Shown here piece by piece: positions 56,300 to 62,094 of a stretch of 64,000 nucleotides of DNA; the stretch's first letter is position 1; the number at the start of each line of letters is the position of its first letter. The notes beneath the pieces were generated by a model. The model ran no database searches and was not told where the DNA came from. It worked only from the letters and a program-made list of their open reading frames with translations. The translations under genes were made by a program, and so were the position numbers. The stretch is from an uncultured Acidobacteriota bacterium (GTDB lineage: Bacteria > Acidobacteriota > Terriglobia > UBA7540), in contig CAWDSK010000006.1 in NCBI GenBank assembly GCA_963804995.1, forward strand, positions 96,001 through 160,000. The letters are read 5' to 3'.

Positions 56300-57060
56300 C
56301 GTAGCGCGGTCCCCCGTTTTTGGGGCCCGCAGCTCTTCGTTTGGAAAACCCGCAAATCTCTCAATTTGAACTCATAGCCCTCGCCCCTCTGGGGGAGAGG
56401 GTGGACCGCAGCCGGCGTTCTCATCAGCCGGGGCGGGCCGGGCCTACGCCCACCGAAGGGGTGACTGGGAGCTGTAAACAACCTCGGCTTCGGCCCGCAG
56501 GCGGGTGAGGGGGTCCCCAGAAACAAATTGAGGAGCAAGCGAACGTTGGCGCACGAGAAGAAGCGCAGGCCTATCTTGTAGCGCGGCCCCCCGCCTTTGG
56601 GGTCCCGCGGTTCTTCATCTGCAATACCCGCACGGACGGCCGCGCCACGATATATCCCCTCAAATGACGCAGGAAGAACTTGAGCCCCCAAGAGCCTGCC
56701 CTGAGCAAAGCGAAGGGGGCGACCTACCACAGCCCAGGCCGAAGGTCCGCCGATCTTAATGGTGGGCCGAAGGTCCGCCGATCTTAATGGTGGGCCGAAG
56801 GCCCGCCGATCTTAATGGTGGAGCAACACCCTGGGTCAACAGATTGGTTCCCGGCCCGAGCCCTGTAGAGCCTGCCCTGAGCAAAGCGAAGGGGGCGATC
56901 TAAGCAACCCCCTGAACCGCCCCACTGGCTGGAACGAACGGGCACGATGGTGAGTAGGGTTAGCGCGCCCCTTCAGGGCTTACCGATGGAAAGGCGTGGC
57001 TTCCTTGACCCAGGGCGTTGCCCTGGGCTTTGTTAGGACGCCCCGTTGGGGCTGGAAGGT
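56300..57060. repeat. Mosaic cluster of palindromic repeats including a 28-bp tandem repeat x3
   Basis: GTAGCGCGG-type REPs (~56301, ~56578); CCCTCGCCCCTCTGGGGGAGAGGG element; AGAGCCTGCCCTGAGCAAAGCGAAGGGGGCGA at 56691 and 56867; GGCCGAAGGTCCGCCGATCTTAATGGTG x3 at 56737-56820; CCCAGGGCGTTGCCCTGGG hairpin. Confidence 0.85.
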
Positions 57061-58604: not shown

Positions 58605-59885
58605 CTACCCCGCTGTCCCACTTGCGGATTCCGCAATCATGTCAACTACGCGCAACAAGCCTTCCGACGATGCCACCGCGAAACGATCAGAAAGCGTAGG
58701 CGAATACATCCGAACGTCCGCTGCTGTGACGTTGTGCCAGACGGGAAGAATGATTCTCTTCCCGCCCGATTCTCTGCTCACCAGCCCGTCAAGTTCCTTT
58801 TGTGGCCACTCCTTCGAGAAAAAGGCCGGGCTGAGTACGACAATCCCGAATCTAGAGGCAGATAGCCCTCGATCAATAGATCTCCTCAGACTATCCCCCA
58901 ATCGTAGTGTGTATTCATCGAACCAGACATGAAAGCCACGCTTTCGGAGGGCCTCTGCTAGCGGTCGGACAAAAGCCTCCTTGTCCTCAGTAGCATGGCA
59001 GATGAAGACATCCCATGTCTTATTGTCATTCTCTGGCCGGTGGTCAGACTCTTTCCCAGACTCGGAAAATTCGAATTTTCGAGCACATGCAAGCAACTCC
59101 CGACCAATGGAAGCAAATTCTTTGGCCTGGTCCAGCTGCAATTCAGATCGGGCCTCTAATATCTGTCCTGCCTGCCGCAATGAACTTACGGTCGTTCCGA
59201 GATAGGCTGCGTCCCACGGGTCAGCTATCCATGTGATGCTACTACTATCCCCGGCCTTGAAGGCGAGCCAGAACACCTTCTGCCTAAGGAAGTCGTCGAT
59301 CATTCGTCCGGTGCCATCAGTTGATGGACGAGTTCTTAGTTTGACCTCCTGAAGTTCTATTGGGTGTGCCTGTTGCGGGTAGAATTTCACCAATCCTGAG
59401 TCTACGGCCAAGCGAATCGAATTCACCACACACTCGTTTACGAGGAACGGGTCTGGCTTCAGATCAAACATGCTCTGCTGATGCGTGATAACTACATAAC
59501 AATACGCAAGGCGCCCGTCCCGAGAATCTGTAACTGCCACGCGAACGTAACTGGCCGCCCGATTCCTCAGAGGTTCCCAAGGCCATTCTATCTGTAATAG
59601 AAGTGGCACACTTGAGATGCAGAAGAAGCCTGGCGATTTGTTCCTAAATCTGCTCCCGAGGGCTCGGGCAAATCTGAGCGCTCCTTGCTGGTAAGCCTGC
59701 ATCGCAGGAAGGTCCGAAAGCGCTTCTCGAAGAAGGGAGAATCTCCATTCCTTGCCGTACCCGCGAGCAATGAAGATAAAGGCGAATCCCCCGGGGTTCG
59801 GCTCCGGGGCGGAAAGCTTTACAGTGCGCTCGCTCTCGAAGATCATGGCGAGACGTTCGATGCCCCGTTCTAGTTCTGTATCCAT
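58605..59885 (-). CDS. TIR-domain protein with an unrecognised ~290-aa N-terminal region
   Basis: WDVFICHATEDK, VWFDE, GDSLRRSIDRGL, catalytic-Glu motif WPQKELDGL, ILPVWH; probable ATG at 59885. Confidence 0.92.
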   Translation of the reverse strand: MDTELERGIERLAMIFESERTVKLSAPEPNPGGFAFIFIARGYGKEWRFSLLREALSDLPAMQAYQQGALRFARALGSRFRNKSPGFFCISSVPLLLQIEWPWEPLRNRAASYVRVAVTDSRDGRLAYCYVVITHQQSMFDLKPDPFLVNECVVNSIRLAVDSGLVKFYPQQAHPIELQEVKLRTRPSTDGTGRMIDDFLRQKVFWLAFKAGDSSSITWIADPWDAAYLGTTVSSLRQAGQILEARSELQLDQAKEFASIGRELLACARKFEFSESGKESDHRPENDNKTWDVFICHATEDKEAFVRPLAEALRKRGFHVWFDEYTLRLGDSLRRSIDRGLSASRFGIVVLSPAFFSKEWPQKELDGLVSRESGGKRIILPVWHNVTAADVRMYSPTLSDRFAVASSEGLLRVVDMIAESASGTAG

Positions 59886-60003
59886 AACTAACCGAAAGGA
59901 GAATTCTCTGACTATATACACCCTGTGTGGGGGGAAGACAAGGGGCCCGAAGACAGTGAGAGCAAGCGCAGCGTGGACCTTTGCGGGGGTGCGGCAATTT
60001 GCT

Positions 60004-60076
60004 GTAGCGGCGGGTTTACCCCGCCACGCTGCCCGCGATCGCGTGGTATAAAATGGCGGGGTAAACCCGCCGCTAC
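60004..60076. repeat. GTAG-type REP inverted pair
   Basis: GTAGCGGCGGGTTTACCCCGCCA ... TGGCGGGGTAAACCCGCCGCTAC, perfect reverse complements. Confidence 0.88.
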
Positions 60077-60567
60077 GCTTGCTGTCCGTCCCCAGATCCA
60101 AATCCCGAATCCCTCGTCCCCCGCCCCCGCCGCGCCACACTCCCCCGTATCGTCTATCGGTGGGTTGGTAGCCGAACATGAGCCCAAAATGCACTGCGGG
60201 TTCGACAATCACCCAATCCCCGGATGCCTCAGTGAATCGATGACCCGATGGCTCGATGGCCCGATCACCGGATCTCCTGATCTCGCCATCGCCGGGCTAC
60301 ATCGCGCGCCAGGCGCCCGCAGCGGACAATGTGTCTGCCATTTTGCATTTTTGGGCTACTGGTAGCCCGAAGGTGCGTTTATCTTATTGACATAACCCAG
60401 TCCATTAAGAGCACAATAGAGGTGAGGATGCGTAGCTCCATGATGCGTCCAGGCAACCCTCGAAGGACGGCGGACCCCAATATTGGGGATCTGCCATGCC
60501 CTACCCTGAATGCTGGTTGTGTTTGCGAACATTTTTCTGTGTCTTCTGCGTTCCGAAGAGCTTTCAC

Positions 60568-61357
60568 GTCGAGTAGAGAGGAAGCGCACCACATGCTGAC
60601 CACGCCAGTCCAACGGATTACCGGGACGTGCACGCAGGGCACGCGTGTTTCTTCCTCCCCCTCTAAAATTCCGTACGGTGGGTTTTCCCCAGTACGGCTT
60701 CAAACGGGAATTCCTCCGCGACCTTCGTTCGCCCGGAGTGGCTTAAACCGACACCCCGCGCTCGCTTATACGCGGCCCAAGTTCCTATCTCCGAGAAGAG
60801 CCACGAGCCGTAGAGGGACTTTCGTCCAAGCGGCACTCCCCTCTTCTGACAGAACGCTCCCGTCCAGAGGTCCTTGGCTCGCCAGCGGGTTATATTGTCC
60901 CGCCGGGTCGTCGCTTACTATGACCTCATCCGAGACTCTCGACTCCTCCGGACCGGCTTATGACTTTGCCGCCCGGTGCTACCTGGGCCGAGAGGTTCCC
61001 CAATTTACTCCGCCTGTCTGTTCTCTCCGTGCCGTCTTCCGTACCCCGGCAGACCGAACGATTGCGCTTGGCTGTTTCTTCATCGTCCGCTTTGGCCTTC
61101 CCCATCTCTGTAGAGGGTCGGCATCTACAAACCCACGCGCTCCGGTTCCAGCGTGGCTGTGTAACGAGGCTGCAAAGTTCACTTTATGGTACGGCCCGGT
61201 AGAGTTGCTAGCCCCGCACCGGCCGGGGCGTTTACGTTCGAGCTTTCACCTCCTGAGTCGCCTCAAGCAGGCGTCGAATATAACTACGCGGGTAAATCAG
61301 CCAATTCCCGCGGCCGGACTTGCACCGGCAAGACAAGCAGCCTTATGGGCTGCAAAC
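60568..61357 (-). mobile_element. ORF-less group II intron (~790 nt; 5' boundary less certain)
   Basis: Minus strand: DV-like AAGCCGTACTGGGGAAAACCCACCGTACGGAATT with AGC triad, DVI ending CTTCCTCTCTACTCGAC, 5' end GTTTGCAGCCCATAAGGCTGC; no RT ORF. Confidence 0.82.
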
Positions 61358-61396
61358 AGAGGTCACAGCGCAGCCGGGCCGCACCCCCAAAAGCAT

Positions 61397-61531
61397 TTCA
61401 CCACGGAGGCCACAGAGGTCACGGAGAGTAGACGGAGAAAAAATTGCGGGTTAACACCCACGGAAGCGGGATCTCTACCGGCGCCATTAGAAGCGCTTTT
61501 CTCTGTGGTCTCCGTGCCCTCTGTGGTGGAT
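61397..61531. repeat. Inverted-repeat element built from 9-mer units
   Basis: CACCACGGAGGCCACAGAGGTCACGGAGA ... TCTCTGTGGTCTCCGTGCCCTCTGTGGTG. Confidence 0.82.
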
Positions 61532-61699: not shown

Positions 61700-62094
61700 T
61701 CTCCATGATGTGCAAGAAAAGAAATGGGTTAGCCATTGAGAGTAAGAATGTCTGAAATCTCTAACTCATTCAGATAGCGAGATTTATGCTGAAACATCGG
61801 GGCCAAGGCGAAAAAACGGGAGCGGCCCTCCATGATGTAATAGAAACAAAAGGAATTAGCCCTGATGAGCGAAAATTGCGCAAAAATCTATATTATTGAA
61901 ATTAAAATAGTTAGCTTGTCTTCGCTGGTCTGTGTCAAAAATGAAAGAGGGGGATCAAAAAATGACGCTGCCGTTCTGTAAGTCACTGAAAACACATGTA
62001 GAAAAAATGTCTGTTCTGCGCCTCTCCATGATGTTGATGAAAACACGCTAGTTAAAGCATTCTCTCCATTATGTTGATGAAAAGAAAGGGAGTT
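61700..62094. repeat. Degenerate AT-rich direct-repeat array B (same family as array A)
   Basis: Units CTCCATGATGT...GAAAA with core at 61707, 61834, 62030 and 62070. Confidence 0.7.

Follow-up and report, generated by a model that had tools for sequence, protein, structure and literature searches.

An ORF-less, IIF-like group II intron of Acidobacteriota that reads twelve bases over two units of a 9-nt repeat and is likely guided to them by its RNA

Homing of group II introns into repeated DNA and mobility of introns lacking an ORF have both been published previously, for RmInt2 and TeI3, respectively. RmInt2 of Sinorhizobium meliloti (class D) uses EBS1, EBS2 and EBS3 to home into a repeated element; according to the cited part of that study its target is the inverted repeats of ISRm17, with a linker of 2 nt separating IBS1 from IBS2 and tolerance of one EBS2 mismatch (PMC4615759). 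TeI3 of Thermosynechococcus elongatus is an ORF-less, multi-copy element diversified by EBS changes, whose mobility in trans through the protein of a sibling was shown by experiment; its close relatives, as far as the cited sections describe them, are the co-resident TeI4, with visible ORF remnants, within one genome (PMC2882425). Introns of class C (IIC) use mostly abundant, largely intergenic sites capable of forming hairpins and, in the portions of the accounts cited here, read the hairpin while lacking EBS2 and part of EBS1 (PMC4424553, PMC8919778). Class F (IIF) introns, such as Ge.ur.I1, Pe.th.I2 and So.us.I2, are described in the relevant passages as having a IIB-like fold with EBS1 and EBS2, an alpha-prime in the Id loop, a 5-nt loop of domain V (DV) and a long, structured domain VI (DVI) (PMC3753933, PMC3552965). 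Among these traits, alpha-prime in a hairpin loop and the 5-nt DV loop are given as marks of IIE and IIF, and the long DVI as a mark of IIF (PMC3753933, in part).

The window analysed in this study is a stretch of 64,000 nt, G000:C6:96001-160000, where G000 denotes the host genome. On its minus strand, at 60568..61355, lies an ORF-less, IIF-like group II intron of 788 nt, which starts with UUGCAG and ends with CUCGAC. The original prediction of a group II intron at this place proved correct, the Rfam model group-II-D1D4-4 matching positions 61184-61331 of the minus strand with 66.2 bits (cut-off 49) and a six-domain fold with covariation being recovered. The covariance-model check proposed at that time was successful in part only, in that RF00029, the DV-DVI model, left the intron unmatched even at E up to 1. 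RF00029 also gave no match at E up to 0.001 in six related ORF-less loci, and in the same scan it matched four of six RT-type intron loci. This model is the basis of one published survey pipeline, as outlined in the cited section of PMC8919778, and the atypical DV of the intron escapes it.

The boundaries of the intron were established in this analysis. The predicted DV, DVI and ...ACTCGAC terminus are all present, with the 3' end at 60568 and a bulged A at -7. The 5' boundary had been placed at 61357, with an intron beginning GUUUG, which is 2 nt too far out, so that the proposed length of about 790 nt is corrected to 788 nt. The GT in question is exonic, because the relatives share the conserved start TYGCAG, which is kept in L093, L125 and L060, where GC precedes it instead of GT. 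The extent of 61355-60568 is based on this conservation together with the counts of empty sites, the reading frame of L125 and the pairing of G3-C4. With the 5' end corrected, the 26-nt empty junction is matched in the host genome 2, 4 and 8 times at up to 1, 2 and 3 mismatches, respectively, whereas the 24-nt junction proposed earlier has none there at up to 3 mismatches; the frame interrupted in L125 (87+175 codons) is open only with the corrected boundary. These two observations and the epsilon pairing ruled out the GUUUG register. The frame of L060, a locus that is possibly an assembly chimera, is likewise open only with the corrected boundary, and the frames of L012, L076 and L114 do not decide between the two. 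The U at position 1 is invariant in 19 of 19 aligned copies, and the 5' end reads UYGCA rather than the GUGYG consensus of group II introns. The 3' end conforms to the expected AY (the intron ends with AC), as does the presence of a bulged branch A in DVI.

A consensus fold of 19 copies calculated with RNAalifold, in which L125 was entered without its 3' end, recovered domains I-VI and predicted 217 pairs, 53 of them with compensatory change. On the minus strand of the window, domain I occupies 61006..61355 (its end being approximate) and contains beta/beta-prime, alpha at 61298-61302, alpha-prime at 61070-61074 in a hairpin loop, and the epsilon-prime GC at 61242-61243, which pairs with G3-C4 in all 19 copies. 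The alpha, beta and delta pairings are kept in L093, L125 and L128 via compensatory changes. Domains II and III together span 60868..61000 (II about 60932-61000, III about 60868-60927), and domain IV (60702..60866, about 165 nt) is structured, with neither an ORF nor an RT remnant. DV (60665..60701) has the AGC triad, a 5-nt GAAAA loop and a 2-nt bulge (CC), with AA opposite the AG of the triad, and the long DVI (60571..60663) carries the branch A at 60574. The order of domains from DI to DVI is normal, the permuted order of circularly permuted introns being absent.

In terms of its RNA, the intron works like those of class F/IIF; membership of a class defined by its protein cannot be claimed for an element without an ORF. 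It is matched by the same D1D4-4 model as two RT-bearing families of the host genome and combines IIB-like features (EBS1, EBS2, EBS3-IBS3 and an internal delta-delta') with the Id stem-loop ending in alpha-prime, the 5-nt DV loop and the long DVI of class F. It differs from class F in the lack of the intron-encoded RT/maturase, in U instead of G at position 1, in the CC bulge and the AA opposite the triad (D1D4-4-like introns with an RT show a standard helix here), and in the silence of RF00029. The loss of the ORF throughout the family with no close helper found, the U1 and the atypical DV are its distinctive properties.

The insertion site reads CTCTGT|G on the minus strand. IBS1, CTCTGT (exon -6..-1, 61356..61361), corresponds to bases 1-6 of a repeat unit; IBS2, CTGTG (exon -13..-9, 61364..61368), lies in the preceding unit, with a 2-nt linker to IBS1; and IBS3, the G at +1 (60567..60567), is the seventh base of the unit. 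A G begins all 51 distinct 3' exons. The segment ACAGAG, noted earlier near 61105 as complementary to CTCT|GT across the junction, is indeed EBS1 (61106..61111, minus strand), although all six bases that it pairs with are exonic; it is located in the hairpin loop of subdomain Id, with the delta U at 61112. EBS2, CACAG (61157..61161, minus strand), is unpaired in the consensus fold, has the delta-prime A at 61171 and reads the 9-nt unit before that read by EBS1. The C at 61049..61049 of the same strand (intron nt 307), which is invariant in the 19 aligned copies, is a candidate EBS3 by virtue of its position. Another segment considered as EBS2, CACGGAG at intron nt about 326, was rejected: it is paired inside domain I and fails in L125 and L128.

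Complementarity and covariation of guides and targets are evident in the 21 copies with a readable 5' exon. EBS1 pairs with exon -6..-1 without mismatch in 18 of them, and EBS2 (CACRG) pairs with the previous unit without mismatch in 15 and with at most one in 20; IBS1 is separated from IBS2 by a linker of 2 nt in 14 copies, the other 7 needing another length. CACAG is found with CTGTG in 5/6 cases and CACGG with CCGTG in 8/9 (Fisher p 0.011). When exons were shuffled among introns, the observed EBS1 score was reached in 0 of 20,000 shuffles, and that of EBS2 in 20 of 20,000 with the 2-nt linker only and in 0 of 20,000 with linkers of 1-4. The EBS2 type is scattered on the tree, requiring 4 and 6 changes (numbers as low arose in 57 and 147 of 500 shuffles); the tree itself is poorly resolved, 4 of its 18 branches being well supported. 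This lack of clustering indicates that the match between guide and exon recurs. Among divergent members, the EBS1 ACTGAG accompanies CTCAGT; L093 has EBS1 GCGAAG and EBS2 CACGA at a CTTCG repeat, L128 has EBS1 GCGAAA at a CTTTTG repeat of longer period, and L125 has EBS1 GCAGAT at a repeat-like, ATCTG-like site within a gene. Exceptions are L012, without an EBS2 match, and L060, with two EBS1 mismatches. L012 and L116 share a 5' exon and differ in their 3' exons, which indicates that assemblies can swap flanks.

The target is built from a repeat with a 9-nt period. In the host genome, 105 pairs of CTCYGTG are spaced by 9 nt and 39 by 18 nt; among the remaining spacings between 7 and 40, none is represented by more than 6 pairs. 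The unit, previously described as a palindromic 9-mer, is a tandem unit and no palindrome in itself; the arrays often occur as inverted arms. The neighbouring array (61399..61427, plus strand) contains an unoccupied target at a distance of 56 nt from the occupied one and has an inverted partner arm at 61500..61528 (plus strand; 29 nt, 79% complementary). The 3' exon carries a degenerate arm of an inverted repeat (60533..60554, plus strand), which is also found behind empty paralogous targets. Perfect 12-base targets (CYGTG-NN-CTCTGTG) number 95 in the host genome, in 38 clusters, and 93 of these are full repeat units; 67 targets of the CTGTG form were found, about 1 being expected by chance. 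In comparison with RmInt2, which carries the gene for its own RT and is directed to the ends of an IS (PMC4615759, in the part cited), the window intron has a target of tandem units, and the period of this target enables EBS1 and EBS2 to read one unit each of two in succession.

Of the 15 distinct 5' exons ending in CTCTGT, 14 contain a further unit upstream, with one mismatch at most and at a spacing of 8-10 (11 at exactly 9), compared with 120 of 648 genomic CTCTGTG sites (105 at exactly 9), a background taken from one genome only. Such a unit is present in 19 of all 22 5' exons, and a looser repeat rule applies to 30 of 50 3' exons, against 203 of the 648 background sites. This enrichment upholds the original prediction that the lineage uses an abundant repeat for homing. 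It had been reasoned that copies in unrelated targets would contradict this; most copies lie in the repeat, and L012 and L076 do not. The related idea that the repeats serve as safe sites holds in part: 54 of the 95 perfect targets lie outside ORFs of at least 150 codons, which cover 82% of the genome, but L012 and L076 are off the repeat and L125 interrupts an open frame.

The intron also draws attention to the repeats themselves. For 14 of the 95 perfect targets, a GxxExxY gene (TIGR04256) is found no more than 500 nt away, and all six GxxExxY genes inspected (L118-L123) have flanks with a 9-nt period, the CACAGAG type occurring at two; the variants seen are of the CACAGAG, CGCAGAG, CACCAAG and CGCAGAT types. 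Such flanking repeats are reminiscent of transposase-REP pairs, and the GxxExxY protein may have spread them. No description of 9-nt repeats associated with GxxExxY genes was found in the literature searched. A search by listings and abstracts also found no paper on this DV type or on REP-like or GxxExxY-associated repeats as homing sites of group II introns.

Relatives of the intron are distributed across several families of the Acidobacteriota. All 21 distinct full-length copies (736-795 nt) are devoid of an ORF and have no room for one. Among 133 genomes of the host family, a DNA search at E up to 1e-15 gave matches in 10, including the host genome itself; a search of a phylum sample, in which only two candidates from each genome were scored, gave matches in 2 of 401 genomes. 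A DV pattern gave 9 of 401 genomes of a class sample, comprising five members (one degraded) and four sister lineages or fragments. Scans with a 3'-end pattern yielded 14 GTDB and 58 metagenome loci; six chance matches without intron similarity (L046, L054, L056, L059, L070 and L090) and four sister lineages (L048, L100, L112 and L115) were dropped before exons were counted. Viral contigs gave no match to the intron, and 72,556 plasmid records gave two weak 80-nt matches. The degraded member L136 (G627) has a different EBS1 loop and follows a different palindromic repeat.

Within single metagenome samples, identical intron ends of 94-95 nt are joined to 5, 4, 3 and 2 different 3' flanks; in one genome (G030), identical ends occur on two. 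This points to recent copying in these relatives. In the host genome (7.55 Mb, 9 contigs, 92% complete) there is a single copy of the intron, and of its DV type, against 95 perfect targets, and the intron is therefore not expanding here. Truncated or internally deleted copies were also found (L013, L027, L042 and L091). Truncation at the 5' end was seen at six sites and at the 3' end at one, in a set from which sister lineages were left out and in which most loci had been found by their 3'-end pattern.

The reported absence of an RT gene was confirmed: the intron has no ORF, and tblastn with four intron proteins of the host genome detected no RT remnant in it (best E 0.14), nor any RT in the family loci L011-L136. 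The host genome contains 49 RT matches, and two of its RT-bearing intron families, with 3 and 6 copies, are of the D1D4-4 (class F-like) type; the window intron shows 56% identity to either of them (global, DI-DIII). Of 10 carrier genomes searched, 9 contain RT frames of the group II type. The original prediction had suggested looking for an RT-encoding relative; no close one was found in the host genome or among 20 RT loci from 8 carrier genomes, and the best local identity among the 23 RT-intron loci compared did not exceed 60%. The two D1D4-4 families of the host genome, with frames of 436 aa and 462 aa, are the best helper candidates; a further co-resident intron type has a 528-aa frame. 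Another RT-bearing intron of this genome, of 1913 nt (Rfam D1D4-6), has 39 5' ends in G000, for example at C2:580383 (L001), and its 37 copies with a readable 5' flank all share a single insertion position within a REP hairpin of the GTAG type. Two copies of the intron with the 462-aa frame lie head to tail at G000:C6:294142-296742.

We consider it probable that the ORF-less, IIF-like intron, which reads 12 bases over two 9-nt units, homes under the guidance of its RNA with the help of a borrowed RT. By analogy with established group II biology, the intron would be transcribed and spliced as a lariat at A782. The lariat would then reverse-splice into empty repeat units via RNA-DNA pairing of EBS1, EBS2 and EBS3, and the cDNA would be made by an RT supplied in trans by other group II introns. 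Self-splicing and retrohoming are predictions of this reading, the helping RT would presumably be that of a distant intron, and we infer that mobilisation takes place in trans. If the element is active, it would represent a compact ribozyme in which both the active-site helix and the 5' base are non-standard, an instance of mobility that uses the RT of an intron about 56-60% identical to it, and a natural series of guide-target pairs.

The best surviving alternative, which we nevertheless regard as unlikely, assumes the same targeting and treats the ORF-less copies as deletion derivatives of a close RT-bearing sibling, as in the TeI3/TeI4 case, which is either unsampled or fails to assemble. 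Multi-copy introns do break assemblies, and in many loci the sequence stops after about 100 nt of intron; moreover, bacterial ORF-less introns are nearly always accompanied in the genome by a closely related IEP-bearing intron, according to the cited part of PMC4424553. On the other hand, the host genome, in its nine contigs, has one copy of the DV type, and neither the family loci nor domain IV retain an RT or its remnant. Even the most divergent members, with 74-76% identity to the window intron over DI-DIII, are all ORF-less. The junction pattern, searched in the 133 genomes of the host family, gave nine matches, of which three are ORF-less members and six have no intron-like start in the matched text. 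In contrast to TeI3, confined to one genome in the cited account (PMC2882425), the present family is spread over several families of Acidobacteriota, and neither a close RT sibling in the genome nor a remnant in DIV, both found with TeI3, was detected here in assemblies that are incomplete.

It is much less probable that the intron does not retrohome at all and is carried passively by the repeat, copied at the DNA level by a GxxExxY nuclease or by recombination between repeats. Such carriage would agree with the location of copies inside a dispersed repeat and with the proximity of some targets to GxxExxY genes. However, differences between the flanks reach as far as the junction itself, more than one sub-type of the repeat is represented among them, the non-repeat or genic sites of L012, L076 and L125 still match EBS1, and covariation between guide and exon would be predicted only where the site is chosen by pairing.

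Recognition of the repeat by the shape of a DNA hairpin, as in class C, with EBS1 merely setting the register, has a still slighter chance of being correct. The frequent inverted arms of the arrays and the position of the insertion point near the end of one arm are compatible with it, but several properties of the intron are not those of class C, which lacks EBS2, has a short EBS1 and inserts after a hairpin: a 6-nt EBS1 is combined with a co-varying 5-nt EBS2, domain I is of the IIB/IIF type with delta-delta' and beta-beta', and some insertions have no repeat arm. The analogy with class C hairpins drawn earlier is therefore abandoned, recognition of the second unit being explained by base pairing of EBS2, and RNA-guided homing remains the likely mode. 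Equally improbable is a catalytically dead family whose copies are relics of an earlier burst: the mispairing of DV at the catalytic triad, which could lower activity, and the truncated or deleted copies might suggest this, but the DV type is invariant across members 74-76% identical and common to sister lineages, identical ends stand on different flanks, and compensatory changes run throughout the fold.

Returning to RNA-guided homing with a borrowed RT, we advance, with slightly more doubt than confidence, a broader reading. The family may be a long-lived non-autonomous lineage (a "ribozyme SINE") with no RT-bearing member left, remodelled in U1 and DV and missed by the DV-DVI model, which survives across Acidobacteriota by re-tuning its two guides to variants of a repeat spread by GxxExxY, its sisters with the same DV parasitising the DV or RT genes of other introns. 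If this reading is true, ORF-less mobile introns would be common, not rare, in soil and peat bacteria.

Sister ORF-less introns were observed at three loci (L019, L020 and L048); they start with GTGC, have the same atypical DV and are located within domain V of other group II introns or immediately after it, with nesting in L048. A further ORF-less sister lineage (L115 and L130) lies inside RT genes at the conserved EPIF-EADF motif, and the DV of L130 is similar to the atypical DV. Insertion inside RT genes could give these elements access to the transcript of the host intron.

In metatranscriptomes, contigs covered relatives of the intron in all four sets compared with the whole element, where DNA in the libraries is possible; no exon-exon or circle joint was found in the RNA contigs of these four. 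In two RNA studies the contigs start at 60585, and DNA contigs reach 60567, which is a weak hint. A promoter scan yielded no usable signal (3 matches against 1.4 expected). Over the DV segment (window 60660-60703), contigs from four runs reach several times the depth of those on DVI and continue into many different flanks. Introns with the atypical DV appear to be abundant in peat, wetland and soil samples.

Some other features of the window should be mentioned. A frame with a TIR domain (58605-60212, minus strand) adjoins the 3' exon and shows partial matches, below cut-offs, to anti-phage TIR families. An AT-rich intergenic repeat starting with CTCCATKATGT occurs at 61701, 61828, 62024 and 62064 and 17 times in the genome. 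Finally, the Rfam model Acido-Lenti-1 matches 57009-57053 of the plus strand with 38.2 bits (cut-off 37).
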